64,000 nt of DNA. Source: Selaginella moellendorffii (taxonomy: Eukaryota; Plantae; Lycopodiophyta). A program made the translations under genes and the position numbers. Positions 17,846 to 44,478 of this stretch are shown one piece after another; position 1 is the first letter of the stretch; each line of letters opens with the position of its first letter. The notes below the pieces were generated by a model. That model ran no database searches. It was given only the letters and a program-made list of their open reading frames with translations, and had not been told where the DNA came from. The stretch covers positions 613,459 to 677,458 of the forward strand of contig NW_003314309.1 of NCBI RefSeq assembly GCF_000143415.4. The letters run 5' to 3'.

Positions 17846-18082
17846 AGCTAGTCTATCCGACGTGGCCCAGAAAGGAATATGCTAAAACGCCATTTGGAAT
17901 ATTCTCGGTATTCAAAGTCTTCAGCCGCCTTCCAGTTGCCATGTATGATCGTTGGTGTCCCATTTTGACTCACCATCTCTTTGATATGGTCCCACATAAT
18001 ACACGTCTTTCCCTTGAGATTGGATGTATAAATCCAGAAGCAGTACCTCAAATCCTTCTTGCATCTTGTATGATTCACTATC

Positions 18083-19687: not shown

Positions 19688-20040
19688 CATCGAAATCTAA
19701 CTTGTAAAATATTCTTCAAGCTCCTACCCTCTCCAAATTCTTTAAACGGCTTCTACAACTGCTGTGGAATCTGCTAACCACCAACTGAATGTGGTATTTG
19801 CTACTGCTTGCTTGCTGAATGCTGGTACGACTGTTGAACTAGAACTTTTGACTTCAGAAAAACGAATGCATTTTCATCCAAGGCCACTACATTTGCTGGG
19901 GAGTACTAATTATAATTTCTCAGATTGTGCCACTGTGCCATGCTCGACGGCATGGCTGTATTTTTATGACTTCAAAATTGATTTTTCTCTCAATTATCTT
20001 CCCTAAAAAATTGATTTCTCATTAGGGTAACGTAATTGTG

Positions 20041-20610
20041 ATGCCTTTCCTCCTGCCGCCGCGCCGCATGCATATCCATCAAGCTGATGCAAGGGCATTT
20101 GCAACATGGCTCCAGGAAAATCTTCCTTTGGTGCATGCCATTCTTACCTTCTATGGCTGGATGGAGATTGTAGGGTTGCAAGGGTGCAATGATCCGCTTC
20201 CTCGTGAGTTCACTATCCATTTGCGTGAAGCTCGCCCAGTTGAAGGTAAGGGTTTGTTTGTGGTTTGTTTGTGCTGGTTGGCTGGTTGCTGTTTGCCTTC
20301 TTTGCTGACTATCTTACGATACAGTGCCCCAAGTGCCTCAGGAGGGGCTACCGAATTTGGTGCCCTTCTCGGATGTGGTTTGCAACTTCACGCTTCCGTT
20401 CAGAGGTCGAGATGGCCTCGTGCAGAAGCTCGCAGAGACGATTGATGACCTTCACAACTTTCGCATCTAGTGGGATTAGCAGAGAGCAGGCGGAAGACTC
20501 GATTCCTTTTAGAGACCAAGGAGCGTGTTGGAGAGGCGCTTAAAGGCAATTTATAATTTCAAAACCAAGAAAATAATTAATTTGTCTTTGAATTCAATTT
20601 ATTTCTTCTC
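20041..20610 (+). pseudogene. Internally deleted copy B of the Crinkler-like NTPase gene
   Basis: Exon 1, intron and start of exon 2 homologous to 21390-21439 / 44479-44845, then a jump to sequence resembling the 3' flank at 46580-46625 (accaagaaaa..tttgtctttgaattcaat). Confidence 0.7.
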
Positions 20611-21271: not shown

Positions 21272-21439
21272 ATGGCGAATGCCCTTACATCTAACATCAA
21301 TCCATCTTCAAGAAAATGAATTGGAGAAGGCTTTGCTAGTCACGAAGGCAAGAGCATTTAAGTCAGTGCTGGAGGATTTAACTAATGTAAGGGCATTTGC
21401 AACATATCTCCAAGAAAATCTACCATTGGTGCATGCCAT
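21272..21439 (+). pseudogene. 5' part of copy C of the Crinkler-like gene, interrupted by the LTR nest
   Basis: gcatttgcaaca...caagaaaatct..cattggtgcatgccat matches 20095-20141 and resumes after 44478. Confidence 0.75.
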
Positions 21440-22444
21440 TGTAAGCGACTAAATTTTCCATTCTACTTTAATCACTTAACCACACCTTCAACCACTTAGA
21501 GGAGTCTCATTCATAACGTCCATAAGTCCTATTTTGGACTTGGGGACTTGCTAACCCTAGGAATGGCATCCATGCCACTCCACCATTGCACTTGGTCCAA
21601 GTGCTCCACGTGCCTGGTCCCATGGCCGACACCCCTAAGGTACCACTGACATACTAGCCCGTTACGCTAAGGCCATGCCCCTTTACCTTGGTCACACCGG
21701 TGGTCCAACACCACTTGCATCGAAATCCCGACTCTCAAGGATTGGGCCATCTGTCCAGGAGTGACCATCCAAGATCCACTCCTTAACATCTTTAAGATGC
21801 CCGCAAATATGGGGAATAACCTTCCTTAATATCCCTTTTACAGTCCCCACCAAGTCCCTCTTCTGTCTATGGCTGTGTTTGCCAACATTGCCACTGGGAC
21901 AGGGCCCATAGGCTTGACCACTAAGTCCTACTATCCTCTGGGATTTCCTCACCACATAACCATACCATTGGTCACTACACTAGAGGGCCATTCCTCTTCC
22001 TTTCCATAGTCTAGGACTTTGGGACAACATTTCAAAACACTGTAGCCTTACGCAAGCCTCATGGGTACTTTCCCCACCTTCTGCCTTTTAGTGATTTAGC
22101 CATGGGCTTAGAGTGAGGTTCCGTTGAGCCACACCAGGTATCCAAGTAGGTAGTGCCACCCACACTTGAACTGGGAGCATCGACTATTCGATTTCCCAGA
22201 GGAACTAGAGCCAACTCTTGAACACTTCACCAAGCTACCCCACTTGATAGTCCGTATTCACTTTAGCCTTGGACCTCCCAATGGTTATCCCGTCACCCAA
22301 CACCTGGGCATGGCCTTCCTGGGCTAAACTGGCTTTTCCTGGCCAAACTGGCTTCATTGGAGTCCTCCCCCTCACTATACTTTTGGAGCTCACCAAATCC
22401 CCTAGGGTCTGGGAGATGAATGCTTTGGGCTTTCACCCTCTCAG

Positions 22445-22800
22445 ACTCGAACTCGGACTCAAGTTCGGACTCGGTCTCGGCCTCGGCCTCGGTCTCGGTC
22501 TCGGTCTTGATCTCAGTCTCGGTCTCGGTCTCTGTCCCGGTCTTGGTCTTGGTCTTGGTCTCGACCTCGGACTCCATCTCGGGTCCTTCTTGGACTCCAT
22601 CTCGAATTCCATCTCGGGTCCATCTCGGACTCCACCTCGGACTCTGTCTCGGTCCATCTTGGACTCCATCTCGAACTCCATCTTGGGTCCATCTCGGACT
22701 CTATCTTGGATCCCTCTCAGACTCCATCTCGGACTCTGTCTCGGTCCATCTCGGACTCCATCTCGGACTCCAACTCGGGTCCATCTCAAACTCCATCTCG
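22445..22800. repeat. CG-rich 6/12-bp tandem array (TCGGTC, TCGGACTCCATC) in the element 1 LTR; counterpart at ~43705-44205
   Basis: Direct inspection; copy number differs between the two LTRs. Confidence 0.9.
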
Positions 22801-22989
22801 GATACTTCCACATGTCATGTGTTGGTTCTTTTGGGTCCCTTTTTGGAACTTCGCTTATTGCTCGCTTCATGCTTGTTCCTCGAGCACTTTGTTGGGAGTT
22901 CCACTCCCGCTTTCAACTTTTCAAGTCGGAGCTTTTAGTCCAAACGTGTTACGCTCGTTTGGCTTTCGCTTCGGCCACTACTACGTGGC

Positions 22990-23570
22990 TGTAGCGCACC
23001 TTATCTCTCTCCCCTTAAGCCAACTGGAAAAGGGGCAATTGCTTGATGAGAGAGCCCTTAGTGGCTATTTTATCCCCATTTATCCCCCAAGGTTCCAAGG
23101 ATCCACGGTGACAATATATCCAAATCTCATCCCATGATCACATGCGCTACATTCACCCCCCCTTTAGAGATGTCAATGTCCTCATTGACTATTGACTAGT
23201 AACCCCTACTGAGCCAAGGGGAACCAGCACCTCCATTTCCGCACTCAATCTACCAATCCTTCCATTGAGGAAGGACGTACGCATGGATGCCCAATACGTA
23301 CGATTTCAAATTTAGGGGTAGGAATATACCTTGCTCAAGGGTATATTATATTTTAGGTAGCCACTAATTAATGGGAATCGAACCCGTGCCATTTTCTCTG
23401 ATACCAACTGTAGCGCACCTTATCTCTCTCCCCTTAAGCCAACTGAAAAAGGGGCAATTGCTTGATGAGAGAGCCCTTAGTGGCTATTTTATCCCCATTT
23501 ATCCCCCAAGGTTCCAAGGATCCACGGTGACAGTATATCCAAATCTCATCCCATAATCACATGCGTTACA
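22990..23570 (-). mobile_element. Complete TRIM (581 bp) with 162-bp LTRs at 22990-23151 and 23409-23570; TSD GTGGC
   Basis: LTRs differ at 4 positions; reverse PPT TTCACCCCCCCTTT; reverse PBS TCTCTGATACCA; the empty site (catgtggcagcc) is visible in the sister LTR near 44421. Confidence 0.96.
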
Positions 23571-26500
23571 GTGGCAACCTTTTGGCTCCACTTTGGGGCC
23601 TAGGGATTTTGTGTCTCATAACTCCACCACCCATAGACAAAGTTTGATGTCCTCATCAAATAATAAATTATTTTATAAAGTAGCACCAATATGTATCACC
23701 TTTTCCATCCTTGGCACCTTGCTAATATTCATCAATGGTTTGATACCAAAGGCTCTCCATGCCTTGCCCATCCTTTAAGGAGGATAGTCTCTCCAACTTA
23801 GAGATTGATTGGACCACTTGTGGTGGTTCTCTCCTTTTATTGGTTTAGTTCTCATTAAACCTGTTAGAGACACCGTTTCTATCTCAATCCCACTACTCCA
23901 TTTCGAGTAGTCTTAGCTTCCATCAATATGACCTTTGCACTTTGAAACTTTTACTTTTGACTTCTCATAGTCAATATCCTAGGTGTCTCCAACACTTTAC
24001 TTTGCACATATTGTGCAACTCCACTTCCCTATCTTAGGAAGTTCTTTACTTGAGGGCACCATCATCCTTTTTTCTATTTCATGCCACCTTAGGCACTAAG
24101 TTCTAGTTATCATAATTTGTGCTAGGGCTGTCTATGGCCCTATCATTTGGCTACCTTACCGCTCCCTCCCTTGGAGCTTCTACTTTCGCCAAATCAGAGC
24201 AATTGGGAATCCATCCTTGGAAACACATTGCATTTCCCACAATTCGTTAGCACCTAACACATTAGTGTTCTTGGTCTAACTTTGCATTTCGGATTCTTTC
24301 CCATTATTCCTATGGCTCTTTTCTTAGCCACTAGTCTTTTGCTCCTATCTTTGATTATTGCACCTAGCAACATCGGATCACTACCTCCATTCTCGAGGTA
24401 TCTTTTTGGTTCCATAGCAAAGACTTTGTTTTGCCAAGTCCAGAGGGTGTTCACCCCTAGTACGTATCTTTAGGATATTCTACTGTGGGCTCTATCCCTG
24501 TGTAAGCCACAAATTTTTCCTTTCTAATTTGCCAGCTTACCTCGTCTATCCGTCCAACACTACTTTGGCTTTTGCTAAGTTCCCTTGCTAAGATTCCTGC
24601 CTATGGTACCAGCTCTTACTTGGTCCTACTTGGTTTCAGCTACTCACTGCACGAGCAACGGAGTGTTAGCCATCCATCCATGGATTCCCAAATCTCTCAT
24701 AATCCCCCTCTTGGGTTAGACTGGACTTAAGGTTCGGCTACACTCCCCACAAGCACAAGCAGCCAAGCATACCAAGCTTCTAGGTTCCTAACATCCCTTG
24801 GTACCACAAGACTTGATCATGGGACCCTCTAAATCCCAAGTCTCGAGTGCAACACTTACTTCAGGACGCTGAGGTGAAACACCGTGGCCTAACGGCCCGG
24901 TATGGGTACCTCTACCCCCCCCCCCCCCCCCCACTCCCATCCCGAAAGGAAGGTCCAAGCCCTTAGGAAGGGTGAGGACTAATGAGCCGCATGGTACTCA
25001 AGTGGCGCACCATTCCACATGAGCCGGGAGCACCGCAGTCGGTTTCCCTTTCGGGAGTGGGAGGTGCTCTTGAGCACTTCCTTAGATGGCCCCTCCGGCA
25101 CCAACCAAGTCCATGCTCACTCCCACCCAAGGCCCCTCAGTCCCAGTCCCAACCTCAAGTCAGTTTGGAAGCCCCATTGGAGAGTTCCTTCAAAACTGGT
25201 TCTTAGACCTCACTATCCCTACTATACTTTTGGAACCCCCTGCAGCCCCCCCCTCCCCTGGGAGACGCACGCTTTGGGCTTTCACCCCTTGACCCGTATT
25301 AGTACTCGGACTTAGTCTCTGGCTCGATCTCGGACTCGATCTCGGATCTGACTTCGGATTCGGTCTCGGACTCGATCTTGGACTCGATCTCGGACCTGAT
25401 CTCGGACCCGACCTCGAACTCGACCTCGGACTCGGTCTTGGACCCGATTTCAGATCTCGGACTCGGTCTCGAACTCGGTCTTGAACTCGGTCTCCGAGTC
25501 AGCCTCAGACTCGATTCCGGACTCTATCTCGAACTCGGTCTTAGAGTCGGTCTTGGACTCGATCTTAGACTCAGTCCCATCAGATGAACTCTTTATCATT
25601 TTGGTCATGCTTTCGGGGCTCCTTTAGCCTACGACATCTTGGGGAGTTGGTTCCTTACAACTCCACCACCCATAGAAGAAGTTCGATGCCCACATCGAAC
25701 GTCTCTTTTTTTTTATCCTACGACTTGTTGACTATGTCTCCAGGGGCATCCCCCCACTTAGCGGTGTGCCTAAGTTAGCTTCCCCGGCCAAGAGCCCATG
25801 ACAACAGAATATAAGTGTCCCTATACTCCTCACCTCACCACACCCTAGTATGGGGTTAGGACTTGAACCCAGCTTTGCTTTACTAAGGGGTTGGGACTCG
25901 AACCCAACCTCCGTAGAATACGTCTACGGATTCGACATCCCTGCAGAGAGTCGGGTGTAGTTCCCTACGCCTGGTCGACCTAGCTAACCCATGCTAATTA
26001 GCTTACCTTCGGCGCGCCTTCGGGTCCCAACATATGCCATTGCTCAACTTTTCAAATTGATATTTTTAATTGAACTTTGCATAAGTACATAGAGTTTTAC
26101 CTTGCAGAAATTCCTCCGCTAGATCTCGCGCGTTCGCTAGGTTCTCCTCCGGTTCCCATGTTACTTCGCTGTGTGGAAATCCTTTCCACTTCACATGGAA
26201 CTCTCTCACCTCACGTCCTTGTCGCTTGCTCTTGCGCGCATTGAGGATGGCCTCGACTTTGTATTCCTCTTCCCCTTGGATAACCTCAGGTAAAGGTCTT
26301 ACTTGGTCTTTGCGAAGTGGATCCTCAAAATACGGCTTGAGTAAGTTCACGTGGAACATGGGATGCATCTTCCCCATCTCTCGAGGAAGTCAAAGACAGT
26401 AAGCCACTTTACCGATTCGAGCCTCAATCTCGTAAGGCCCCGCGAACCTGCTTAAGGAACTCAAGATCAATTCATTTACAGGAATATATGCATTTTTACC

Positions 26501-26769
26501 TTTGGGTCAACTTCCGACTGATCCCACTTGGTAGCCTGAGGTTCTTGGTGTTCAGCCACACCTTCTCCCTAGCTTGGAACTCTACATCCCGGCACTTCTG
26601 GTTTGCGTACTTAGTTTGCCTTTGTTGAGCCTGTTCCAAGGAATCCCTCACTAGATTCCAAATGTTGAGTCTTTCCGCCGTGATGTAAGGAACCAACTCC
26701 CTGAGGTGTCGTAGGCTAAAGGAGCCCCGAAAGCATGACCAAAATGATAAAAAAGTTCATTGGATGGGA

Positions 26770-26990
26770 CCAAGTCTAAGATCGAGTCCAAGACTGACTC
26801 GGAGACCGAGTTCGAGACCGAGTTTGAGACGGAGTCCGAGATCCGAAATCGGGTCCGAGACCGAGTCCGAGGTCGAGTCCGAGGTCGGGTCCAAGATCGG
26901 GTCCGAGATCGAGTCCGAGATCGAGTCCGAGACCGAATCCGAAGTTAGATCCGAGATCGAGTCTGAGATCGAGCCAGAGACTAAGTCCGA
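26770..26990. repeat. CG-rich hexamer array (TCCGAG/ACCGAG/ATCGAG) in the element 2/3 LTRs; also ~25320-25580, 33100-33360 and 39185-39450
   Basis: Direct inspection. Confidence 0.9.
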
Positions 26991-29900
26991 GTACTAATAC
27001 GGGTCAAGGGGTGAAAGCCCAAAACGTGTGTCTCCCCGGGGGGGGGGGTGCAGGGGGTTCCAAAAGTATAGTAGGGATAGTGAGGTCCAGGAACTAGTTT
27101 TGAAGGAACTCTCCAATAGTGCTTCCAAACTGACTTGAGGTTGAGACTGGGGCCGAGGGGCCTTGGGTGGGAGTGAGCATGGGCTTGGGTGGTGCCGGAG
27201 GGGCCACCCAGGGAAGTGTTCAAGAGCAGCTCCCACTCCCGAAAGGGAAACCAACTGCGGTGCTCCCGGCTCATGTGGAGTGGTGCCCCACTTGAGTACC
27301 TTGCAGCTCATTGGTCCTCGCCCTTCCTAAGGGCTTGGGCCTTCCCTTCGGGATGGAAGTGGGGGGGTAGAGGTACCCATACCGGGCTGTTAGGCCACGG
27401 TGTTTCGCCCCGACGTCCCGAAGCAAGTGCTGCACCCAAGGCTTGGGATTTAGAGGGTCCCATGATCAAATCTTGTTGTACCAAGGGGTGTTAGGAACCT
27501 GGAGGCTTGGTGTGCTAGGCTACTTGTGCCTGCGGGGAGTGTAGTCGAACCTTAAGTCAAGTCTAACCCGGGGAGGGGGATTGGGAGAGATTTGGGAATC
27601 CGTAGATGGATGGCTAACACTCCGTTGCTCGTGCAGTGAGTAGCTGAAACCAAGTAGGACCAAGTAGGAGCTGGTACAATAGGTGAGAACCTTGGCAAGG
27701 GAACTTAGCAAAAGCCAAGGCAGTGTTGGTCGGATAGACGAGGTAAGCTGGCAAATTGGAAAGGAAAAATTTGTGGCATACAATTTGGTATTGGAGCCTT
27801 TTCCTTAGTTCTAGCGAAGGATAGAGGCGAATTGCTGGGAGATGGCAAAGGCAGGGCGGAAGCGAACCAAGGCGGAGACGGAACCTCCTCTAGAGCTGGA
27901 GCCTCCAGTTGAACGAGAGGCTATGGATGAGGAATCCTTGCATGAGGAGGACTCTAGTGAGGAAACTTCCAAACAGGAGTTCGGTGGCAAGGTTCGGTCG
28001 TCCAAGGCTTGATTGGACGTGCTAGAAGGATAGTTGGCACAGACCAATGCTCTGCTGGAGACTCTCGTACGCAAGCTAAAGCGTGACAAGAAGCGGAAGA
28101 AAATGAGAAAGACTGCGAATGTTGGCAGCGCAGAAGGTGCAGACCCTTCAACAGGGACTGAGGCAGAACCAAACAAAGTCGAACAGACCGAAGTGGAATC
28201 AGTCCCTCAGGCAGTTCCCAAGTACAAACCAAAGCCCCCACCGGTCTTCAAGGGAGTAAATGACTATAAGGTGGTGGAGGATTGGTTTTACGATATGGAG
28301 GACTACTTCCGAGCGTTGCGATTACCGAGCTCGAAGAAGGTCCCATGTGCAAAACCATACTTGGCAGAAAATGCCAAGTCTTGGTGGAGAATGACGAAGG
28401 CCAACGAAGGACCAGTGGCCACTTGGGACATGATGAAGGCGAGGATCTGTGCAACATACGTTCCTCCGAATGCCACTCTGCATTTGAGAGATGAGTTGAG
28501 TAGGCTGAAGCAGACTAGAACCATCCAGGAATATGTGAATGGGTTCATGGCAAAGAGGATACTTGTCACGGACATGGGGGATATAGATGCGTTCCATGCC
28601 TTCATATCAGGTTTGCAAACTTGGGCTCGCGGTGAGGTGATGCGCTAGAACCCGACCAACTACAAGGAAGAGTTGGATGCGGCCATCAAGGTGCATTTCA
28701 ACGATAACCTGTGAAAGGGGAACACGACGGGGTCGGGATCCACGTTTAGCAAAGGGGCTAAACCAAGGGGAACGTATAGCAGGGGGAATTTCAAGAAGAG
28801 TTTCTCTAAGAATGAGTCCTCGGGGTTCCGGAAAGGCAAATCCGGTGGCCAGCGAGCGAGTACGTGGGGGAGTCAAGCGAAAAGAGATAAACTCACGGAT
28901 AAGAAGGTCAAGTTGTATAGCAGCGTGGGAAACAACGTATGCTACAACTGCGGTGAAGCGGGACACTTTTCGAGGGAATGTCTCTACCCGAAGAAGGCCA
29001 GAGCCAATATGGCCGTCAAGTTGGGTGAAGTCCAAACTGAGGTATGTGATCCAATCCCCAACTCAAAGTTACTCATTACACGAGGAACTTTGGTAGAGAG
29101 TTGTTTGCGACATCTACTAGCCCTCCGAAGGAAGCTCGGAGGTAGCTTTGTTAAGATCCTTATTGACACGGGCGCTTCGGATAATTTTGTGGCTGTAGAC
29201 ATAGTCCGGCAAGCCAAACTAACGGTGTAGCGGCTAGGCGAACCAAGGACTATAGAGTTTGTTCAAGGTAGCCAAAGCACTGATAAGGTACTTCGACAAG
29301 CGAGAGTCGAAGTAGGGACATGGAAAGTAGACATGGATTTCACCGTGTTGGACATGGCGGGATTTGACGTGATCTTCGGAATGGATTGGTTCAATCGGTT
29401 CGTAATAGCCCTACATGGACAAGGTAGGAACTTTGTGGTACTGGCGAATGCCCAAGGAAGAAAATCTAGGGTGGAGGCCCAGGATCTAAAGGTAGGGCAA
29501 AGCAAGGCCAAAGATTCCTGCTTAAACCTAGTGTCCACAAGAGGACAACTCACTAAAGGAACTAAGGTAGCCTTTTTGTGCTTACTCTCGGTGAAGAGTG
29601 ACAAAAAGACAGGAACGGAAGAAGTACCTTTAGTGATCCAGCGGGTGTTGGACCAATTCCAGGATACCATGCCGGAGGAGCTACTGGCGGGGTTGCCCCC
29701 CGCACGATTGATAGAACATAAGATTGAGCTGGTTGAGGGTGCTGAGGCGGTGGTTCGTCCCCCCTATCGTTTGAACGAAAAAGAACTCAAGGAGCTCAAG
29801 TGCCAACTAGAGGAGTTGGTAGACAAAGGGTATGTTAGGTTGAGCAAGTCGCTGTATGGGGCGCCGGTGTTATTTGTGAAAAAGAAAAATGGTTCTATGC

Positions 29901-31715
29901 GCATGTGCATAGACTACCGGTTGCTCAACAAGTATACAAAGAAGAACAAGTACCCTTTGCCAAGAATTGAGGACCTGTTCGATAGGTTGGGAAAGGCAAA
30001 ATACTTCTCGAGGATTCACCTAAGGTCAGGATACTACCAGATCAGGGTAGCCAAGGAAGATGTCGAGAAGACAACCTATCGAACGAGGTATGGGAGCTTT
30101 GAATTTCTAGTGATGCCCTTCGGGCTATGCAATGCGCCGGCAACGTTTTCGGCGCTGATGAACCACATCTTTGTACCCTATCTGGATCACTTCGTGGTCA
30201 TCTATATCAACGACATCCTGATCTATAGCGAGATGCTAGAGGAGCATGGCAAACACTTGGCGAAGGTGTTTGAGAAACTAAGGGAACACAAACTGCATGC
30301 TAAAGAGAGCAAATGTGACTTTGCTCAACAAGATGTAAAGTTTCTCGGGCATGTGGTGGGCCAGGATGGGCTCAAGGTGGACCCGGAGAAGGTCCAAGCG
30401 ATCCAGGAATGGGAGCGACCATTGAATGTACATGAGTTGAGGGCGTTCTTGGGGCTATGCAACTACTACTGAAAGTTTATCAGACACTATTCGAGAGTAG
30501 CCCTGCCCTTAACGGACCAAACAGGAAAAGGGAAGATGGTTTGGACAGCAGAATGTGAGGCGGCATTTGTCCACCTCAAAGGGAAGTTAAGGAAGGCTCC
30601 CGTGTTGGCATTACTAGACTTTGGTAAGGACTTTGAGGTAGAAACGGATGTTTCGGACTTTGCGTTGGGCGCAGTTTTGAAGCAAGACAACCATCCAGTA
30701 GTGTTCTTCTCGAAGAAATTGGACAAGGCTCAACAGAAGTGGCCTGCCCACGAGAAGGAATTGTTTGCGGTGGTCAAGGCGCTCAAGGAGTGGCGACACT
30801 ACCTTGGGAGACACTTCAAGGTTTACACGGACAATGTGGCAACAAAACACTTCTTGTCACAGCCCGACCTGAGAGGGAAACAAGGTCGGTGGGCCAATGC
30901 CTTGGCCGAGTTTGATTGCGAGATTCTGTACAAGCCTGGGAAGAGCAACATCGTGGCGGATGCGCTAAGTCAAAAAGCGAGCTTGAGGTTGGCAATATCC
31001 AGCGCAATAGCAACCTTCTGGGACGATGTGCGGACAGCATATGAAAATGATGGTCTAGCACAAGAAGTGTTGCTGAGGAATCTAGAGGCACGGGAAGCTC
31101 ACCAAAGAGGTGAGTTGCCAACAGAAGAGAAAACAAGCTATGTGGAATGCAATGGACTCATCTATTACAAGAAAACGAGGGTGTATGTTCCAGAAGGGGA
31201 ACTAAGGAAGGTAGCCTTAGTAGAGTGTCATGACAGACTTCTTGCGGGACACGGCGGAGTGCCCAAGACGATGGGCTTACTCAAGAGGAAGTACCATTGG
31301 CCAGATATAGCTAAGGACGTCCAAGACTATGTAAAGATATGTCCAACATATCAGCAGGTCAAAGCCGTGACTAAGGCTAGTGGGGGCTTGTTGCAAAGCA
31401 TCCCAATTCCAGATTGTCCGTGGAAATGTCTTACGATGGACTTCATCACGGGACTTCCCCCAAGTGAGGGGTTTGATGCGATATTCGTGGTGGTGGACTG
31501 ATTTTCGAAAATGGCACATTTCATACCCACCATAACGGAAGTGGATGCGGAAGGTGTGGCAAAGCTGTTATTCGAACAAGTGGTTCGAGTGCGGGGAAGG
31601 CTGGAAGAGATCATCTCAGATCGAGATAAGATCTTCACTAGTAAATTCTAGAGGACTCTCCTAAAACAGTATCGCACCAAGTTGAAATTCAACACAGCCT
31701 ATCACCCACAGACAG

Positions 31716-31762
31716 GTATGGGGTATTAAGTCAAGTTTGGTGGCACTAACACTTCTTGATAG
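31716..31762 (+). other. Putative spliceosomal intron 1 in integrase (47 nt); equivalent at 34398-34444 on the minus strand
   Basis: ACAG|GTATGG...CACTAAC...TGATAG|ACGGA; removal gives HPQTDGQTERVN. Confidence 0.85.
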
Positions 31763-32180
31763 ACGGACAAACGGAAAGGGTGAATAGGCAACTAGAGGAT
31801 TAATTGCGATGCTATGTCTCGGGAGACTAGACTGATTGGGTAAGTCATTTGGGACTTACGGAAATGTGTTATAACAACTCACCACATTTGAGTATCGGGG
31901 TGAGTCCATGGGAAGTCATCAATGGGCGAGCTATTGAAGGTCCTGTGGAACTCGGCGTGGCCGAGTATCATGGAGAGCTACCCGCAGTGGAGGCATTCAC
32001 GGCGGAAAGACTCAACATTTAGAATCTAGTGAGGGATTCCTTGGAACGGGCACAACAAAGGCAAACCAAGTACGCGAACCAGAAGCGCCGGGATGTAGAG
32101 TTCCAAGCTGGGGAGAAGGTGTGGCTGAACACCAAGAACCTCAGGCTACCAAGTGGGATCAGCCGAAAGTTGACCCAAAG

Positions 32181-32232
32181 GTAAAAACACATGTATTCCT
32201 GTAAATGAATTGATCTTGAGTTCTTTAAGCAG
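32181..32232 (+). other. Putative spliceosomal intron 2 in integrase (52 nt); equivalent at 26448-26499 on the minus strand
   Basis: CAAAG|GTAAAA...TTAAGCAG|GTTCGCG; removal gives RKLTQRFAGPYEI. Confidence 0.85.
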
Positions 32233-35200
32233 GTTCGCGGGGCCTTACGAGATTGAGGCACGAATCGGTAAAGTGGCTTACCGACTTCGATTTCCTCGAG
32301 AGATGGGGAAAATGCACCCAGTGTTCCACGTGAACTTATTCAAGCCGTACTTTGAGGATCTACTTCGCAAGGACTAAGTAAGACCTTTATCTGAGGTTAT
32401 CCAAGGGGAAGAGGAATACGAAGTTGAAACCATCCTCAATGCGCGCAAGAGCAAGTGACAAGGACGCGAGGTGAGAGAGTTCCATGTGAAGTGGAAGGGA
32501 TTTCTACACTGCGAAGCAACATGGGAACCGGAGGAGAACCTAGCGAACGTGCGAGGTCTAGTGGAGGAATTTCTGCAAGGCAGAACTTTATGTACTTATG
32601 CAAAGTTCAATTAAAGTATCAATTTGAGAAGTTGAGCAATGGTATATGTTGGGACCCGAAGGCGCGCCGAAGGTAAGCTAATTAGCATGGGTTAGCTAGG
32701 TCGACCAAGCGTAGGGCACTACGCCCGACTCCCCGCGGGGATGTCGAATCCGTAGACGTATTCTACGGAGGTTGGGTTCGAGTCCCAACCCCCTAGTAAA
32801 GCAAGGTTGGGTTCAAGTCCCGACCCTATACTAGGGCGTGGTGAGGTGAGGAGTATAGGGACACCTATATTCCGTTGTCATTGGCTCTTGGCCAGGGAGG
32901 CTAACTTAGGCACATTGCTAAGTGGGGGGATGCCCCTGGAGACATGGTCAACAAGTCGTAGGATAAAAAAGAGACGTTCGATGTGGGCATCGAACTTCTT
33001 CTATGGGTGGTGGAGTTATAAGGAACCAACTTGCCGAGGTGTCGTAGGCTAAAGGAGCCCCGAAAGCATGACCAAAATGATAAAGAGTTTATCGGATGGG
33101 ACCAAGTCTAAGATCGAGTCCAAGACCGACTTTAAGACCGAGTTCGAGATAGAGTCCGGAATCGAGTCCAAGACCGACTCGGAGACCGAGTTCGAGACGG
33201 AGTCTGAGATCCGAAATCAGGTCCAAGACCGAGTCCAAGGTCGAGTCTGAGGTTGGGTTCGAGATCGGATCTGAGATCAAGTCCGAGATCGAGTTCGAGA
33301 CCGAATCCGAAGTCGGATCCGAGATCGAGTCCGAGATCGAGCCAGAGACTAAGTCCGAGTACTAATACGGGTCAAGGGGTGAAAGCCCAAAACGTGCGTC
33401 TCCCGGGGGGGGGGGGGGCTGCAGGGGGTTCCAAAACAAAAGTATAGTAGGGATAGTGAGGTCCAGGAACCAGTCTTGAAGGAACTCTCCAGTGGGGCTT
33501 CCAAACTGACTTGAGGTTGAGACTGGGGCCGAGGGGCCTTGGGTGGGAGTGAGCATGGGCTTGGGTGGTGCTGGAGGGGCCACCCAAGGAAGTGTTCAAG
33601 AGCAGCTCCCACTCCCGAAAGGGAAACCAACTGTAGTGCTCCCGGCTCATGTGGAGTGGTGCCCCACTTGAGTACCTTGCAGCTCATTGGTCCTTGCCCT
33701 TCCTAAGGGCTTGGGCCTTCCCTTCGGGATGGAAGTGGGGGGGTAGAGGTACCCATACCGGGCCGTTAGGCCACGGTGTTTCGCCCTGACGTCCCGAAGC
33801 AAGTGCTGCACCCAATGCTTGGGATTTAGAGGGTCCTATGATCAAGTCTTGTTGTACCAAGGGGTGTTAGGAATCTGGAGGCTTAGTGTGCTAGGCTGCT
33901 TATGCCTGCAGGGAGTGTAGCCGAACCTTAAGTCCAGTCTAACCCAGGGAGGGGGATTGGGAGAGATTTGGGAATCCGTAGATGGATGGCTAACACTCCG
34001 TTGCTCGTGTAGTGAGTAGTTGAAACCAAGTAGGACCAAGTAAGAGTTGGTACAATAGGCGAGAACCTTGGCAATGGAACTTAGCAAAAGCCAAGGCAGT
34101 GTTGGTCGGATAGATGAGGTAAGTTAGCAAATTGGAAAGGAAAAATTTGTGGCTTACACGTGAATGCCTCAACTACCGGTAACTCTCCATGATACTCGGC
34201 CATGCTGAGTTCCACAAGACCTTCAATAGCTCGCCCATTGATGACTTCCCATGGACTCACCCCGATGCTCGAATGTGGTGAGTTGTTATAACACATTTCC
34301 GCAAGTCCCAAATGACTTACCCAATCGGTTTGGTCTCCTAAGACATAGCATCGTAAATAATCCTCCAGTTGCCTATTCAGCCTTTCCGTTTGTTCGTCTG
34401 TCAAGAAGTGTTAGTGCCATCAATCTTGATTTAATACCCATTACCTATCTGCGGGTGATAGCCTGTGCTAAATTTCAACTTGGTGCGATACTATTCTAGG
34501 AGTGTCCTCCAGAACCTACTAGTGAAGATCTTATCTAGATTTGAGATAATCTCTTCCGGCCTTCCCCGCACTCGAACCACTTGTTCGAAGAACAGCTTCA
34601 CCTCACCTTTTGCATCCACTTCCGTTGTGGTGGGTATGAAATGTGCCATCTTCGAAAATCAATCCACCACCATGAATATTGCATCGAACCCCTCGCTTGG
34701 GGGAAGTCCCGTGATGAAGTCCATTGTAAGACATTTCCATGGACAATCTGGAATTGGGATGCTTTGTAACAAGTCCCCACTAGCCTTAATCATGGCTTTG
34801 ACCTGCTGACATGTTGGATATGTCTTTACATAGTGTTGGACATCCTTAGCTATATCTGGCCAGTGGTACTTCCTATTGAGTAAGCCTATTGTCTTGGGCA
34901 CTCCGCCGTGTCCCGTAAGAGGTCCGTCATGACACTTTTCTAAGGCTACCTCCCTTCTGGAACATACACTCTCGTTTGCTTGTAATATATGAGTCCGTTG
35001 CATTCCGCATAACCTGTTTTCTCTTCCGTTGGCAGCTCACCTCTCTAGTGAGCTTCCCGTGCCTCTAGATTCCCCAGCAACACTTTTTGTGCTAGACCAT
35101 CGTTCTCGTATGTGGTCCGCACATCAACCCAAAAGGTTGCTGTCGCGCTAGATATAGCCAACTTCAAGCTCGCTTTTCAACTTAGTGCATCTGCCACGAT

Positions 35201-38200
35201 GTTGCTCTTCCTAGGCTTGTATAGAATCTCGCAATTAAACTCGGCCAAGGCATTGGCCCACCGACCTTGTTTTCCCTCAGGCCGGGCTGTGACAAGAAGT
35301 GTTTCGTTGCCACATTGTTCGTGTAAACCTTGAAATGTCTCCCAAGGTAGTGTCGCCACTCCTTGAGTGCCTTGACCACCGCAAACAATTCCTTCTCATG
35401 GGCAGACCACTTCCGTTGAGCCTTGTCCAACTTCTTTGAGAAGAATGCCACTGGATGGTTGTCTTACTTCAAAATTGCGCCCAATGCAAAGTCTGAAGCA
35501 TCTGTTTCTACCTGAAAGTCCTTACCAAAGTCTGGTAACGCCAGCACGGGAGCCTTCCTCAACTTCCCCTTGAGGTGGACGAATGCCACCTTGCATTCCA
35601 CTGTCTATACCATCTTCCTTTTTCCCGTTTAGTCCGTTAAGGGCAGGGCTACTCTCGAATAGTGTTTGATAAACTTTCGATAGTAGTTGCATAGCCCCAG
35701 GAATGCCCTTAACTCGTGTACATTCGATGGTCGCTCCCAATCCTGGATCGCTTGGACTTTCTCCGGGTCCACCTTGAGCCCGTCCTTGCCCACCACATGC
35801 TCGAGAAACTTTACCTATTGCTGAGCAAAGTCACATTTGCTCTATTTAACATACAGCTGGTGTTCCTTTAGTTTCTCAAACACTTTCGTCAAGTGTTTGG
35901 CATGCTCCTCTAGTGTTTCGCTATAGATCAGAATGTCGTCAATATAGATGACCACAAAGTGATCCAAATAGGGTACAAAGATACGGTTCATCAACGCCGA
36001 AAACGTTGCCGGCACATTGCATAGCTCGAAGGGCATCACCAGAAACTCGAAGCTCCCATACCTCGTTCGACAGGTTGTCTTCTCGACATCTTCCTCTGCT
36101 ACCCTGATCTGGTAGTATCCTGACCTTAGGTCAATCCTCGAGAAGTATTCTGCCTTTCCCAACCTATCAAACAAGTCCTCAATTCTTGGCAAAGGTACTT
36201 GTTCTTCTTTGTATATTTGTTAAGCAACCGGTAGTCTATGCACATGCGCATAGATCCATCTTTCTTTTTCACAAATAGCACCGATGCCCCATACGGCGAC
36301 TTGCTCAACCTAACATACCCTTTATCCACCAACTCCTCTAGTTAGCGCTTGAGCTTTACAAGTTTTTTTTCGTTCAAACGATAGGGGGGACGAACCACTG
36401 CCTCAACACCCTTGACTAGCTCAATCTTATGTTCTATCGGTCGTGTGGGGGGCAATCCCGCTGCTAGCTCCTCTGGCATGGTATCCTGGAATTGGTCCAA
36501 CACCCGCTAGATCACTAAAGGTACTTCTTCCGTTCCATTCTTTTTGTCATTTCTCATCAAGAGTAAGCACAAAAATGCAGCCTTGGTCCCTTTAGTGAGT
36601 TGTTCTCTCGTGGACACCATATTTAAGCACGAATCTTTGGCCTTGCGTTGCCCTACCTTTAAATTCTGGGCCTCCACTCTGGATCTTCTTCCTTGGGCAT
36701 TTGCCAGTACCACAAGGTTCCTACCTTGTCCATGTAGGGCTACCACAAACCGATTGAACCAATCCATCCCGAAGATCACATCAAATCCCGCTATGTCCAA
36801 CACGGTGAAGTCCATGTCTACTTTCCAAGTCCCTACTTCGACTCTCGCTTGTCGAAGTACCTCATCGGTGCTTTGGCTACCTTGAACAAACTCTATAGTC
36901 CTTGGTTCGCCCAGCCGCTGCACCGTTAGTCTGGCTTGCCGGACTATGTCTGCAGCCACAAAATTATCCGAAGCACCTGTGTCAATAAGGATTTTAACAA
37001 AGCTACCCCCGAGCTTCCTTTGGAGGGCTAGTAGATGTCGCGAACGACTCTCTACCAGAGTTGCTCGTGTAATGAGTAACTTTGAGCTAGGGACTGGATC
37101 ACATACCTCAATTTAGACTTCACTCGACTTAATGGCCATATTGGCTCTAGCCTTCTTCGGGAAGGGACATTCCCTTGAAAAGTGTCCCGCTTCACCGCAG
37201 TTGTAGCATATGTTGCTTCCCACGCTGCTAAACGACTTGACCTTCTTATCCATGGGTTTGTCTCTTTTTGTTTGACTCCCCCACGTACTTGCTTGCTGGC
37301 CACCGGATTTGCCCTTCCAGAACCCCGAGGACTCATTCTTAGAGAAACTCTTCTTGAATTTCCCTTTGCTATAAGTTCCTCTTGGTTTGGCTTCTTTGCT
37401 AAACGTGGATCCCGACCCCGTCGTGTTCCCCTTTCACAGGTTATCGTTGAAGTGCACCTTGATGGCCGCATCCAACGCTTCCTTGTAGTTGGTCGGGTTC
37501 CAGCGCATCACCTCACCGCGAGCCCAGGTTTGCAAACCTGATAATGCCTTCATATTATGAAGGCATGGAACGCATCTATATCCCCCATGTCCGTGACAAG
37601 TATCCTCTTTGCCATGAACCCATTCACATATTCCTGGATGGTTCCATTCTGCTTCAGCCTACTCAGCTCATCTCTTAGATGTAGAGTAGCATTTGGAGGA
37701 ACGTATGTTGCACAGATCCTCGCCTTCATCATGTCCCAAGTGGCCACTGGTCCTTCGTTGGCCTCCGTCGTTCTCCACCAAGACTTGGCATTATCTACTA
37801 AGTATGGTTTTGCACATGGGACCTTCTCCGAGCTCGGTAATCGCAACACTCGGAAGTAGTCCTCCATATCGTAAAACCAATCCTCCACCACCTTATAGTC
37901 ATTTACTCCCTTGAAGACCGGTGGGGGCTTTGGTTTGTACTTGGGAACTGCCTGAGGGACTGATTCTACTTCGGTATGTTCAACCTTGTTTGGTTCTGCC
38001 TTAGTCCCTGCCGAAGGGTCCGCACCTTCTGCGCTGCCAACATCCACAGTCTTTCTCTTTTTCTTCCGCTTCTCATCACGCTTTAGGTTGCATACGAGAG
38101 TCTCCAGCAGAGCATTGGTCTGTGCCAACTGTCCTTCTAGCACGTCCAATCAAGCCTTGGACGACCGAACCTTGCCACCGAACTCCTGTTTGGAAGTTTC

Positions 38201-41200
38201 CTCACTAGAGTCCTCCTCATGCAAGGATTCCTCATCCATAGCCTCTCGTTCAACCGGAGGCTCCAGCTCTTGAGGAGGTTCCGTCTCCGCCTTGGTTTGC
38301 TTCCGCCCTGCCTTTACCATCTCCCAGCAATCCGCCTCTATCCTTCGCTAGAACTGAGGAAAAGGCTCCGATTCCAAATTAAGCCACAAATTTTTCTTTT
38401 CCAATTTGCCAGCTTACCTCGTCTATCCGTCCAACACTGCCTTGGCTTTTGCTAAGTTCCCTCGCCAAGGTTCCCGCCTATGGTACCAGCTCCTACTTGG
38501 TCCTACTTGGTTTTAGCTACTTACTGCATGAGCAACGGAGTGTTAGCCATCCATCCACGGATTCCCAAATCTCTCCCAATCCCCCTCCCTGGGTTAGACT
38601 GGATTTAAAGTTCGGCTACACTCCCCACAAGCACAAGCAACCAAACATACCAAGCTTTTAGGTTCCTAACATCCCTTGGTACCACAAGACTTAATCATGG
38701 GACCCTCTAAATCCCAAGTTTTGGGTGCAACACTTGCTTCGGGACGCCGGGGCGAAACACTGTGGCCTAACGGCCTGGTATGGGTACCTCTACCCCCCCA
38801 CTTCCATCCCGAAGGGAAGGTCTAAGCCCTTAGGAAGGGCGAGGACCAATGAGCCACATAATACTCAAGTGGGGCACCACTCCACATGAGCTGGGAGCAC
38901 CATAGTCGGTTTCCCTTTCGGGAGTGGGAGCTGCTCTTGAGCACTTCCTTGGATGGCCCCTCTGGCACCAACCAAGTCCATGCTCACTCCCACCCAAGGC
39001 CCCTCAGTTTTAGTCCCAACCTCAAGTCAGTTTGGAAGCCCCACTAGAGAGTTCCTTCAAAACTGATTCCTGGACCTCACTATCCCTACTATACTTTTGG
39101 AACCCCCTACAGCCCCCCCCCTCCCTGGGAGACGCACGCTTTGGGCTTTCACCCCTTGACCCGTATTAGTACTCAGACTTAGTCTCTGGCTCGATCTCGG
39201 ACTCGATCTCGGATCCGACTTCGGATTCGGTCTCGGACTCGATCTCGGACTTGATCTCGGACCCGATCTCAGACCCGACCTTGGACTCGACCTCGGACTC
39301 GGTCTCGGACCCAATTTCGGATCTCGGACTCCGTCTCGAACTCAGTCTCGAACTCGGTCTTGAACTCAATCTCCAAGTTGGCCTCGGACTCGATTTCAGA
39401 CTCTATCTCGAACTCGGTCTTAGAGTCGGTCTTGGACTCAATCTTAGACTCAGTCCCATCTTATGAACTCTTTATCATTTGGTCATGCTTTCAGGGCTCC
39501 TTTAGCCTACGACACCTCGGCGAGTTGGTTCCTTACACCCTGGCCCAACTTTGTGACCCTCCCCTAGGTCTCTTATAGAAACTACTTTCTTCGGACTCAT
39601 TATGCCATCGCATAATCACAAATGATTTCCCTCAGGTGTTCTTCCCACTTGGTAACCTTGACCAAGCCACACCATCATCAATAGTTCAAATCAACACTTT
39701 GAACTAGGAATCATATTCCTCAACCCAAACAAAGAGTTTGTCCTTGTTTAGCCACAAGATCACCTGGTGATCTCATCTTGACCCCTTAATAGGTCTACCA
39801 ATAGGAATTAGGTCTTCCAGACCCTTTTAGATTGTTGGCTATGACCCCAGGGGCATCCCCCACACTTGGCAGTGTGCCCAAGCCAGCCCTTTCGGCCAAG
39901 GATCTATAGCAACTAAGACTGGGTGTCCCCATCTCATTCACCACGTCCTTGGTGCCCTTTGCACCAAAGTGTTCAAGTTAGATATGCCGAACTTTCACTT
40001 TGAGCAATTTAACTGTGCATCACGACTCCGGAGCATCTCCCGCTTGGCAGTGTGCCCAAGCCAGTCTCCTCACTGAGAGTCCATGACCATCGAAATATGA
40101 GTGTCCTTAAATTCCAAACCATCACCATGCCCTAGTGATTTGGGACTCGAACCCGAGCACTAGAGGGTCGGGACTCGAACCCAACCTTCATATATGCATC
40201 TATAGATGGTATCACACTGGATGCCTAGCATGACTCCCCACGCCAGTGCACCAACATGTACTTAAAGCGCGCTATAGATCACAGTTTAGGAACCTAATTC
40301 CTCCACACTGCCAAGTCCTCTCACTTGACAAGTCTGTGATCATGCATGGACTTCTCCATGCTCGGCCCCATGGGCCACCCCTTTGAAGTTAGCACCTTCA
40401 TCTAGGGGATTTGTTCTTCTAATTTGCCAATCTCACTTAGCAAGTCATCCGACCATCGTAACATGGCTCATGCATAAGTGTGAAAGTCCTTAATCATCGA
40501 CTTTCATTCAAAACCCTCTCTTTGAACACTTGGGAACTACTTCCCTAACCTTGATAGCTTCACCTTATGGCCAGCTTCAAGACTACGCTTCTGCTGCGCC
40601 ACTTTGATTTTGCACGCTCTAGGAACCATTTACACTTGGCTTTCTAGGTACTTATCTACCCAGAATTGTCTTTGGGAACCTTCAAGGAACTCTATTCCTT
40701 AGTTTGCTAAGACTTCTCCTTTGCAAACTCCCTACTCACCATATGATCTAACATGGATAATTCCACATTTTAGACTCTCCATGGCCTCGCAGTTGCTAGT
40801 AACAACATCTTTGAGCACCCTCTTGATTCTCCACTCCCAACTTTCATAACCACAATTGGTTATGCCCTTCGATTTTTATGGTTCAATTCCATCCCAACAC
40901 TACTTGCCTTTTGGCCTCATATGTTTCCTTTGGTTATCCTCCTCCAGACTAGGAGGATAGCTTTGCACATTTCACCATGCCTTAGCAAGTATTCATAGGG
41001 ATGAACCTACCCAATAGCTTAGGAAGTGGTTCCTCAATCTGGGCATGCTCACCTTATAATCCCACACACCGAGATTACCGTTACTACTTATGGGCCTCCA
41101 TATGCCCATCCCTAGCTTTGCCAAAATCCCATTTTTGGCTTTGTCCAAATCGGGTAGACAGATTCCTCCTGTCTCCACAACCTTGGACGTTTGGATAGCA

Positions 41201-44200
41201 CCTCCTATCCATCATTCGCTAGGGACTTAGTCCCTTAGGCCTTATCTAATACCCTTACGACACCAAACACCACTTCCTAGTGTTTTAGAGTGTTTGGGTG
41301 TCCCAATGATAGTCTTCTTTGGCAATGAGCATTCCCTTTACGACATTGACTTACTATATCGCAACATAAGCAACTTCTCCCCCATAAAGGTATATCTAAC
41401 TTCCTTATCCCAGAAGTCTTAGGTAGCTATCTTCTACCAGTTTAATCAATTATTTTGCACCTTTTACTTAGTTGCCTCATAGTTGTCAAGTCCTACAACC
41501 ACTGCTTGGTGCTTCCACACCTCCATCATTAATTGGGTCACCACATTCCAACCGCATGCCTTCCAGCTAAGGCTATGCCATTCCCATTCCCATTGGGATT
41601 CCCTTGGTAAGGGGCTTTCATAAACCCACCAACATAACCTCAAAGTATCACATTTTGGCACATTTGGTGTCTCCATACTATTGGCTCCACGAGCCTACCT
41701 TTATGACACTTCTTACTTGTGTCTAGGTCTTTGTCAAAACCAACCCAGTTGTTTCTCATGCCAACTATCCATTAGCACTACACCATAGTGTTCGCACACA
41801 ACTCTGCACCAAAGTGGCTTCTTCTAGGAACACCTATCCACGACTTTAATATGGCACATTTGGCCACCCATGAGATACCCACTGTTCTCATACTTGGATT
41901 TTATGATCCTCCCCATCCTCCGTGGGGCACAACACACCTCAGTCCAAATGCTTCCATTAGTCCTTTAAGACTATTCTTTGACTCCACTTAAGTCATTCAA
42001 CCTTTTGGACTTTTCCTAATCCTCTGACCTATAAGGTCTTACTTTAGAGGTGTTAGCTCCTTGGAATATAACTTCTTGTATTCATGTCCTACTCACCAGG
42101 ACCACCATTATAAGTGTTATTCCAACACTTGCTATTATTCCTTGGGGCAACTTTTGCCCCTTTGGACTACTTGTCCATGTGATGAGAATACCAACTCATC
42201 CTCTAAGTACACCCCCAACTCCTTGGGTTGTTCCAGCATTTATCAAAGGTAGCTTCAGCTACCATTTCAAGGACTTGTGTCCTCTTCTGTATTTGACCTT
42301 CCACGGTCATTAATTCTGGTCTCAAATTCATAAGCACCAACCCCAACTATATGAAGATAATCTTGTAACTCTTTTATGGTTTTGGAGTCTTTATTTTTCC
42401 TGTGATTCCAATTATAATTGTTTACCACAACTACATTAACCAGTTTGTTGAGTCAAACGTTCATCTAAATCACATCCTCAACTCTTTGAGGAAAACCTTA
42501 TACTATTCCCAAGATCCCGAAGTTGTTCCATTATTGGCCCCTTTCTATCCACCACCTCACCTACCAGTTCACACATAAACTGTAGTGGAGAGCCATATCT
42601 TCCCGACTAGCTACTCCTCACAGATAGGCCCACTTTTAAGACTTTCCGATGCCAACACCAGTGATGATATACTTGAGCACCAATAAAAGTTGGACTAAGG
42701 AACAACTCCGATACCAAATTGTAAGCGACTAAATTTTTCATTCTACTTTAGTCATTTAACCACACCTTTGACCACTTGGAAGAGTCTCATTCACAACTTC
42801 CATAAGTCCTATTTTGGACTTGGGGACTTACTAGCCCTAGGAATGGCATCCGTGCCACTCCACCATTGCACTTGGTCCAAGTGCTCCATGTATCCAGTCC
42901 CATAGCCGACACCCCCAAGGTACCACTGACATACTAGCTCATTACGCTAAGGCCATGCCCCTTTACCTTAGTCACACCGGTGGTCCAACACCACCTGCAT
43001 TGTAGTCCCGACTCTCAAGGACTGAGCTATCTGTCCAGGAGTGACCATCTAAGATCCACTCCTTAGCGTAAGATGCCCGTAAACATGAGGAACAACCTTC
43101 CTCAATATCCCTTTTACAGTCCCCACCAAGTCCCTCTTCTGTCTATGGCCATGTTTGCCAACACTGCCACTGGGACAGGGCCCGTAGGCCCGACCACTAA
43201 GTCCCACTGTCCTCTAGGATTTCCTCACCACATAACCATACCATTAGTCACTACACCAGAGGGCCACTCCTTTTCCTTTCCATAGTCTAGGACTTTGGGA
43301 CAACATTTCGGAACACCGTGGCCTTACACAAGCCTCATGGGTACTCTCCCCACCTTCTGCCTTTTGGTGCTTTAGCCATGGGCTTAGAGCGAGGTTCCGT
43401 TGAGCCATGCTAGGTATCCAAGTAAGTAGTGCCACCCACACTTGGACTGGGAGCATCGACCATTCGATCTCCCGGGGGAACTAGAGTCGGCTCTTGAACA
43501 TTTCACCAAGTTACCCCACTTGACAGTCCGTATTCACTCTAGCCTTGGACCTCCCAGTGGTTATCCCGTCACCCAACACTTGGGCACAGCCTTCTTGGGC
43601 CAAACTGACTCCACTAGAGTCCTCCCCCTTACTATACTTTTGGAGCTCACCAAACCCCTCAGGGTTTGGGAGACGAACGCTTTGGGCTTTCACCCTCTCA
43701 AATTCGAACTCGCACTCGCACTCGCACTCGCACTTGGACTCAGACTCAGGCTCGGGCTCGGTCGCGGCCTCAGTCTCGGCCTCGGCCTCGGTCTCGGCCT
43801 CGGTCCTGATCTCGGTCTCAGTCTCGGTCTCGGTCCCGGTCTCGGTCTCAACCTCGGACTCCATCTCGAGTCCTTCTTGAACTCCATCTCGAATTCCATC
43901 TCAGGTCCATCTCGGACTCCACCTCGGACTCCGTTTTGGTCCATCTCGGACTCCATCTCGGACTCCACCTCGGACTCCGTTTTGGTCCATCTCGGACTCC
44001 ATCTCGAACTCCATCTTGGGTCCATCTTAGACTCCATCTCGGGTCCATTTCAGACTCCATCTCGGACTCCATCTCAGACTCCATCTCGGATCCCTCTCGG
44101 ACTCCATCTCGGACTCTGTCTCGGTCCATCTCGGACTCCATCTCGGACTCTGTCTCGGTCCATCTCGGACTCTAACTCGGGTCCATCTCGGACTTCATCT

Positions 44201-44478
44201 CGGACACTTCCACATGTCATGTGTTGGTTCTTTTGGGTCTCTTTTTGGAGCCTCGCTTATTGCTCGCTTTATGCTTGTTCCTCGAGCACTTTGTTGGGAG
44301 TTCCACTCCCGCTTTCAACTTTTCAAGTCGGAGCTTTTAGTCCAAACGTGTTACGCTTGTTTGGCTTTCACTTCTAGTCTAAATGTGTTACGCTCGTTCG
44401 GCTTTCACTTCGGCCATTACCATGTGGCAGCCTTTTGGCTCCACTTTGGGGCTTAGGGATTTTGTGTCTCACAGCCAT

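Follow-up and report, generated by a model that had tools for sequence, protein, structure and literature searches.

Structure of the locus

The window, i.e., the whole stretch of 64,000 nucleotides of Selaginella moellendorffii DNA that was analysed (contig NW_003314309.1), contains two copies of one chromovirus LTR retrotransposon family, here called element 2 and element 3, besides other repeats and host genes. Coordinates count from the first letter of the window:

26684..34158, plus strand: element 3, full-length chromovirus LTR retrotransposon of 7,475 bp, target duplication CGTGA; decayed, with in-frame stops
26684..27782, plus strand: 5' LTR of element 3, 1,099 bp, with a 12-nt tandem repeat
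27783..27798, plus strand: primer binding site of element 3, Met-tRNA-type
27842..31715, plus strand: exon A of element 3, a single frame with 8 in-frame stops
31716..31762, plus strand: intron 1 of element 3, 47 nt, GT..AG with CACTAAC; if retained, it brings in an in-frame stop
31763..32180, plus strand: exon B of element 3, remaining integrase core with the catalytic Glu of GQTE, and helical linker; 3 stops
32181..32232, plus strand: intron 2 of element 3, 52 nt, GT..CAG; if retained, a stop directly follows KLTQR
32233..32614, plus strand: exon C of element 3, Tf2-like SH3 (GPY/F) module and chromodomain; 2 internal stops
33017..34158, plus strand: 3' LTR of element 3, with a purine-rich tract just upstream
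24502..39537, minus strand: element 2, with target duplication CCCTG; older than element 3, of the same family (about 90% identity) and split by element 3 within exon B
34398..34444, minus strand: intron 1 of element 2, 47 nt, GT..AG
26448..26499, minus strand: intron 2 of element 2, 52 nt, GT..AG
5849-7381, 7800-10200, 11246 onward, 47123-50891, 51056-52090 and 62380-62870: host gene regions

The first-pass annotation of this DNA had reported two copies of the family. Both exist, but their arrangement has to be refined: they are nested and not adjacent, with element 3 inserted in opposite orientation within the middle integrase exon of element 2. The LTRs of element 2 are more diverged (7.5-7.8%) than those of element 3 (4.6-5.7%), which agrees with the nesting order. 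In both, the LTRs are about 1.1 kb long and have TG..CA-type ends, one LTR end of element 3 being mutated. The primer binding site of element 3 is one that we take to be of Met-tRNA identity, based on the consensus TGGTATCAGAGC.

Exon A comprises gag, a zinc knuckle, protease, reverse transcriptase (RT), RNase H, and the zinc finger and core of the integrase as far as HPQT. The Pfam matches follow each other as gag-PR-RT-RH-INT in one frame up to intron 1, which is the domain order of chromoviruses. Within exon C, where the aromatic positions Y-W-F of the chromodomain are kept, Pfam matches PF00385 (E 1.2e-14) and PF24626 (E 2.1e-13) were obtained, and these become joined to the integrase core only once the RNA is spliced. 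Both window copies are decayed, and four indels separate element 2 from element 3 across 27783-32001. In a tree of 161 RT stretches, all of them without clade labels, the element groups at a support of 0.983 with 13 unnamed sequences that are 60-65% identical to it, and the seed-plant matches fall elsewhere. A simple TATA scan of the LTRs delivered one weak TATA-like site per LTR, a result that does not support or exclude two promoters.

Several other features of the window deserve mention. A third LTR element on the minus strand (21438-44430) encloses element 2. Its LTRs (about 21438-22990 and 42718-44430) are 91-92% alike and have motifs in common with those of the chromovirus family, and a Met-type primer binding site was recognised by eye. 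No pol match was found in it by tblastn, and it is likely a non-autonomous relative. A degenerate 12-nt tandem repeat of variable length lies at 26740-27000 and in the matching parts of other LTRs, both those of the chromovirus family and those of the third element. Short LTR-like repeats of 165-250 nt at 2870-3270 and 22989-23570 adjoin Met-type primer binding site sequences and possibly represent a small non-autonomous element. Duplicated ORFs of 412-537 aa are found at 14366-20491 and 44554-46486. The two that were scanned had no Pfam match, the best Atlas match (0.91) was to a mostly Mucoromycota hypothetical cluster, and weaker leads were AAA-like and PD-(D/E)XK. We presume a resemblance of these ORFs to Crinkler-like NTPase plus nuclease proteins. 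Among the host genes, sequence matches identified an NRT1/PTR transporter, whose protein clusters at 90% with SELMODRAFT_92333, and the large chain of carbamoyl-phosphate synthase, and an LRR receptor kinase, a calcium-dependent kinase, a BI-1-like gene and a histone H2A were recognised by eye.

Two inserts within the integrase

The integrase of this family is interrupted twice. Insert 1 (GT...CACTAAC...AG) splits the Asp codon of HPQT-D-GQTE between G and AC, four codons upstream of the catalytic Glu, and insert 2 splits the Arg codon of KLTQ-R-FAGPY between AG and G. It had been claimed that both copies carry both inserts at the same positions, with the same lengths and with intact GT/AG ends, and that the unspliced frame of either copy stops before the catalytic Glu. 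Inspection of all four sites confirmed the former: the inserts of element 2 and element 3 share lengths and ends and differ at 6/47 and 4/52 positions, with CACTAAC present in intron 1 of both. Translation of each copy confirmed the latter, as both read ..GY-stop four codons past HPQx if the inserts are retained. If intron 1 alone is removed, both stop right after KLTQR. The inserts add up to 99 nt (47 + 52), so that in the DNA exon C continues the frame of exon A, just as if two frameshifts cancelled each other out.

The breakpoints of the inserts were set independently by homology and not by their GT..AG ends. The match of a foamy-virus integrase to the upstream piece ends at HPQS, and its catalytic Glu lies five residues further on. 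In the alignment with Ty3 integrase (PDB 7q5b), residue 1267 is the last to be covered by the upstream piece and residue 1269 the first to be covered by the downstream piece, which leaves out the split codon and nothing else. GT..AG segments of 40-70 nt are common in the element (765 in its coding region), and consequently such ends alone carry little weight. The chance of meeting them at both homology-defined breakpoints is about 4e-4, and they are found there for both inserts in both copies, as in U2-type introns. Moreover, insert 2 has an AT content of 69%, vs 51% in the adjoining coding DNA, and AG/GT context at its two ends. Among the 40 variants listed of 74, none falls on a GT or AG, and these sites are kept in 2/2 window copies.

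For comparison, the BI-1-like host gene has five introns of 50-63 nt, the removal of which opens one frame. The earlier statement that the inserts match host introns in size holds for the 52 nt of insert 2, while the 47 nt of insert 1 are slightly below this range. Neither intron sequence matches the other or anything else in the window beyond 11-13 nt, and no source was found for them there. An in-frame 42-nt GT..AG segment just upstream of the protease DTG was also noticed in both copies (29093-29134 on the plus strand, with a matching stretch near 37010-37060 on the minus strand). No RNA reads fall on this segment, which may represent either another intron, the third and a frame-neutral one, or an insertion in the protein.

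Relatives without the inserts

Uninterrupted integrases are the rule among the relatives of the family. The first motif is unbroken in 44 of 45 homologous proteins, and 38 have both motifs, with a spacing of 137-155 residues in 37 of these. Alignments of the homologous proteins to the window break off at the edges of the inserts. From 80 metagenome loci taken, 45 reached the integrase and 36 were measurable at junction 1. The second motif is in frame in 35 of the 38 metagenome loci that have the first, most commonly at a spacing of 142 codons (15/35), and this is the very spacing found in the window if the inserts are skipped. Within the nearest RT clade (60-65% identity, support 0.983) all six members checked are uninterrupted. 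That the inserts are clean insertions had been assumed before close relatives were compared; with a single codon at junction 1 in 36/36 measurable metagenome loci this assumption is borne out, and, as judged from sequence comparison, the inserts are clean gains. The protein searches returned no close family member: the best identity was 30-50% for exon B (among longer proteins) and 65% for RT, and proteins of 75-242 aa gave no match to the family.

Splicing in transcript-type runs

Of 23 sequencing runs listed, none is on record as an RNA carrier of the sequence; seven of them were examined (X1, X16, X17, X18, X21, X22 and X23), and X2-X15, X19 and X20 were left out. X16 and X17 are two samples of one study (P2) and their status as RNA is a guess; X18 belongs to study P3. 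Contigs were compared over 31620-32330 for the introns. One contig of X16 (2,500 nt, depth 11.2) and one of X17 (1,083 nt, depth 9.36) skip both 47 nt and 52 nt, each bounded by GT..AG, in one molecule, and the shorter sides of these joints measure 94 and 100 letters. Intron-bearing contigs were not found in X16 and X17 over this stretch, where contigs give no strand, start or splicing rate. Exact removal in these runs (RNA by guess) of segments that are present in DNA is what U2-type introns would display. The first-pass annotation had proposed spliceosomal-type splicing of both inserts with junctions visible in transcript data; exact GT..AG joints of both are indeed present in one likely-RNA contig each of X16 and X17. 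It is thus supported that the inserts are real spliceosomal-type introns and that they are spliced.

The third run of this kind shows the introns in place. X18 yielded one contig that covers intron 1 and reaches the first bases of intron 2, besides another that begins inside intron 2; the material of X18 may be DNA or pre-mRNA. The variants 31681, 31887, 31890, 32145 and 32251 are common to X16, X17 and X18 and amount to 0.05-3% of X1 depth. Since X18 shares these five rare variants with X16 and X17, we read the contigs with introns and those without as products of one locus or of very close ones. The expressed haplotype has five synonymous rare variants in all three runs, and non-synonymous ones that are specific to a run. 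The transcripts seem to originate from a minor subfamily, and within it from a single low-copy locus or a pair of alleles. All spliced contigs come from one minor haplotype, and we assign the status of an active copy to none.

Raw RNA reads on the 5.2-kb internal region, drawn from about 12 in 100 of each run, numbered 12 in X21, 2 in X22 and 0 in X23. They contained no joint and are too few to be a test. Single reads of X21 and X22 lie inside intron 2.

Retention of the introns in DNA

In the DNA run X1, 57,985 contigs fall on the internal region of the element and 7,383 on the intron stretch. Either joint was found in 0/7,383 of the latter, with 15 of the 17 joints in this stretch listed (over the internal region, 15 of 120). 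Detection of joints in X1 worked for sides of 20-50 letters. The summed depth of the intron bins is 0.68-0.87 million vs 0.20-1.08 million in other bins, where contigs can drop rare variants and summed contig depth is not taken as a copy number. Together with the intact introns of both window copies, this agrees with the previous claim that DNA copies keep the introns and are not mostly insert-free. A few intron-less copies are possible, but they are not a major class. One X1 contig, of depth 108, carries variant 31999, which is otherwise specific to X16 and X17, yet no joined form was found in X1.

Selection on the spliced frame

The variants shared within exon B (20-93% of X1 depth; 40 of 74 variants listed) are synonymous third positions of the spliced frame in 9/9 cases, and the same nine would be second positions in the unspliced frame. 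The chance of such a result is about 8e-5 if the sites are treated as independent, though they are linked. Variants private to element 3 are non-synonymous in 5/8 cases (Fisher p=0.009 vs the shared exon-B variants). Between element 2 and element 3, pN/pS is 0.32 and 0.17 in exon B, 0.34 in exon C and 0.26 in PR-RT. However, one wrong-frame control, on the 5' part of exon B, also gave 0.31, and the two-copy pN/pS alone is therefore weak. Taken together, the substitution patterns support the view that the downstream integrase has been under purifying selection in its spliced frame. Such selection would mean that lineages translated the downstream integrase when they already had the introns, and this speaks against reliance on a helper family.

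A model for splicing-dependent integrase

That LTR elements pass through RNA is demonstrated in textbooks by their loss of introns. If the frames are followed, unspliced RNA of the present family would encode Gag, protease, RT, RNase H and an integrase truncated before the third catalytic residue, and spliced RNA would encode the whole polyprotein with the catalytic Glu, the SH3/GPY-F module and the chromodomain. Particles would then obtain their integrase in trans from spliced RNA. As both introns are present in new copies, reverse transcription should act on unspliced RNA, and the integrase should stem from another molecule that is spliced. If a spliced genome were replicated, the introns could not be regained, and spliced RNA should thus be almost barred from replication. 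The likeliest route would be an arrangement as in the barley element BARE1, with a capped, spliced and translated RNA that lacks the copying signal, and an unspliced RNA that is packaged. The likely benefit would be less integrase relative to Gag and RT in an element with only one frame.

We are highly confident that integrase is splicing-dependent in this family. It is likely that integrase is made from spliced RNA only and that a separate unspliced pool is reverse-transcribed into new copies, while the two-pool step taken on its own, which draws on analogy, appears just a little better than an even bet. The division of labour put forward in the first-pass annotation, with integrase from spliced RNA and unspliced RNA copied into the genome, is supported by the joints, by retention in DNA and by selection on the spliced frame. 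That splicing may also serve as a regulatory switch is a reasonable proposal, for which there is a single weak indication: the introns are spliced in P2 and retained in P3.

A more elaborate version, which we consider doubtful, is that the host spliceosome gates cDNA synthesis, integration and target choice stepwise, strict sorting keeping both introns. Particles with unspliced RNA would reverse-transcribe but could not integrate; removal of intron 1 alone would give an integrase that has all catalytic residues but neither SH3 module nor chromodomain and would hence be untargeted; and removal of both introns would give the chromatin-targeted enzyme. Splicing would vary by tissue or stress, for which the spliced form in P2 and the retained form in P3 could be an example.

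Alternatively, there might be one RNA pool that is seldom spliced. Unspliced RNA would be packaged unsorted, a small spliced fraction would supply integrase, and intron-less copies would be rare or poor replicators. This would fit the intron-bearing form of the X16/X17 haplotype in X18, the single raw reads of X21 and X22 inside intron 2, the Ogre precedent of splicing in just a subset of transcripts, and the simple TATA scan of the LTRs, in which no second promoter was found. However, the sole contig form in X16 and X17 is the doubly spliced one, no intron-less DNA contig exists among 7,383 in X1, and a steady leak should build up, given that intron loss is one-way. We thus regard a single pool as unlikely. 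As the doubly spliced form was assembled in X16 and X17 and as intron loss is irreversible, a sorting step is favoured over rare splicing.

The family might also be integrase-defective and be moved by the integrase of an intron-less family, its inserts being lesions that are tolerated and spliced by accident. The two copies in the window are dead, and parasitic subfamilies such as BARE2 exist. Yet none of the nine shared variants of exon B alters the protein read from the spliced frame, the catalytic Glu, SH3 module and chromodomain are kept with pN/pS like that of RT, and both introns are cut out exactly, so that this explanation has a small chance of being right. We give even less credence to the idea that the joined contigs stem not from spliced RNA but from genomic DNA of the plants concerned, where either an ancestral copy or a processed retrocopy would lack the introns. 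The RNA status of X16 and X17 is a guess, and, as all relatives are intron-less, an intron-less ancestor existed. However, X18 shows intron sequence in the same rare haplotype, variant 31999 is in an X1 contig (depth 108) yet no joined form is in X1, and a processed copy would itself prove splicing. Finally, two compensating frameshift insertions, together 99 nt long and crossed by ribosomal recoding, as suggested by exon C regaining the frame of exon A in unspliced RNA, are rejected with a negligible residual probability, since translation into either insert would immediately meet a stop and the X16 and X17 contigs lack both inserts, with exact GT..AG joints.

Splicing-dependent integrase thus remains our preferred reading. 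We regard splicing-dependent LTR retrotransposon expression in which integration alone is gated as a real feature of the family, on evidence from transcript-type runs, DNA and selection. Introns in the integrase core provide a natural label by which translated and replicated RNA can be told apart, and consequently the question which RNA retroelements package can be addressed by junction counts in polysomes, particles, cDNA and genome. This is also a case of intron gain within a retroelement. Furthermore, since such introns look like paired frameshifts, families of this kind can be annotated as dead or as lacking a chromodomain.

Comparison with known systems

BARE1, a Ty1/copia element of barley, has a 104-nt intron at the gag/protease border; its capped, translated and partly spliced RNA lacks the R region, uncapped unspliced RNA is found in particles, and no spliced DNA copies were found (PMC3735527). 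Similar to the present family, BARE1 has one gag-pol frame and a short GT..AG intron that is kept in DNA while the spliced form is absent from it (PMC3735527). In contrast, BARE1 is a copia element with one intron, and its splicing turns pol off and leaves Gag only, whereas here a gypsy chromovirus has two introns and splicing turns integrase on. By analogy, the two-pool arrangement of BARE1 may be the best model for the survival of the introns described here (PMC3735527). EVD and the shGAG of Arabidopsis Ty1/copia elements likewise set the Gag-to-enzyme ratio by splicing within one frame, with the intron kept in DNA, but that intron is centred on the protease and the spliced RNA ends early and gives Gag only (PMC5580714). 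Splicing of this BARE1/EVD type, at the gag/protease border to a Gag-only mRNA, is not what we found, as splicing here extends the frame. In Arabidopsis gypsy elements, the study on shGAG detected no conserved splicing of this type (PMC5580714).

Ogre, a Ty3/gypsy element of the Tat clade, has an intron between frames that is spliced to express RT-RH-INT (PMC6317226; PMC4408406), and splicing occurs in only a subset of transcripts (PMC6317226). Both are gypsy elements, genomic copies keep the intron, and splicing is needed for downstream enzymes including integrase (PMC6317226). However, in the present family RT and RNase H are available without splicing, integrase alone is gated, and this happens from within its catalytic domain; both introns lie inside the integrase and not at the Ogre position. 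Foamy viruses express integrase from a spliced RNA distinct from the genome as well, but their subgenomic pol mRNA arises by removal of the upstream gag, and their integrase coding region contains no intron (PMC7828637). Penelope-like elements keep spliceosomal introns through retrotransposition, but they are not LTR elements, have no DDE integrase, and their characterised introns are in the 5' UTR (PMC4209133; bioRxiv 2021.04.23.441226).

Among chromoviruses, Galadriel and the unclassified S. moellendorffii group of REXdb resemble the present family in features, though in features only: a Met-tRNA primer binding site, a 5-bp duplication, one frame and a size range that covers 7.5 kb; no introns are reported for them (PMC6317226). 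A chromodomain was detected in only 9% of the unclassified group (PMC6317226), and hidden introns could, as a speculation, explain this low detection. Assignment to SM-Tcn1 and the Tcn1 clade (self-priming without a tRNA primer binding site, gag and pol in two frames, 440-bp LTR) was rejected, because the element has a Met-type primer binding site, one frame and 1.1-kb LTRs.

A 2025 review gives only Ogre and EVD as plant exceptions to intron loss and treats BARE1 under translation. In the open-access text that was searched, no report of introns in an LTR-retrotransposon integrase was found, nor was anything on them found in PMC5718144, PMC6875170, PMC9804982, PMC12477816 and PMC10309623; Repbase, the element files of REXdb, subscription papers or the supplement to the S. 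moellendorffii genome paper might contain a mention. The novelty claimed at the outset consequently stands in part: splicing-dependent pol was already known from Ogre and intron retention from BARE1, while for the position inside the integrase no such precedent was found in the open-access text searched. What is new is this position within the integrase domain, the presence of two host-sized introns, and the chromovirus lineage in which they occur.
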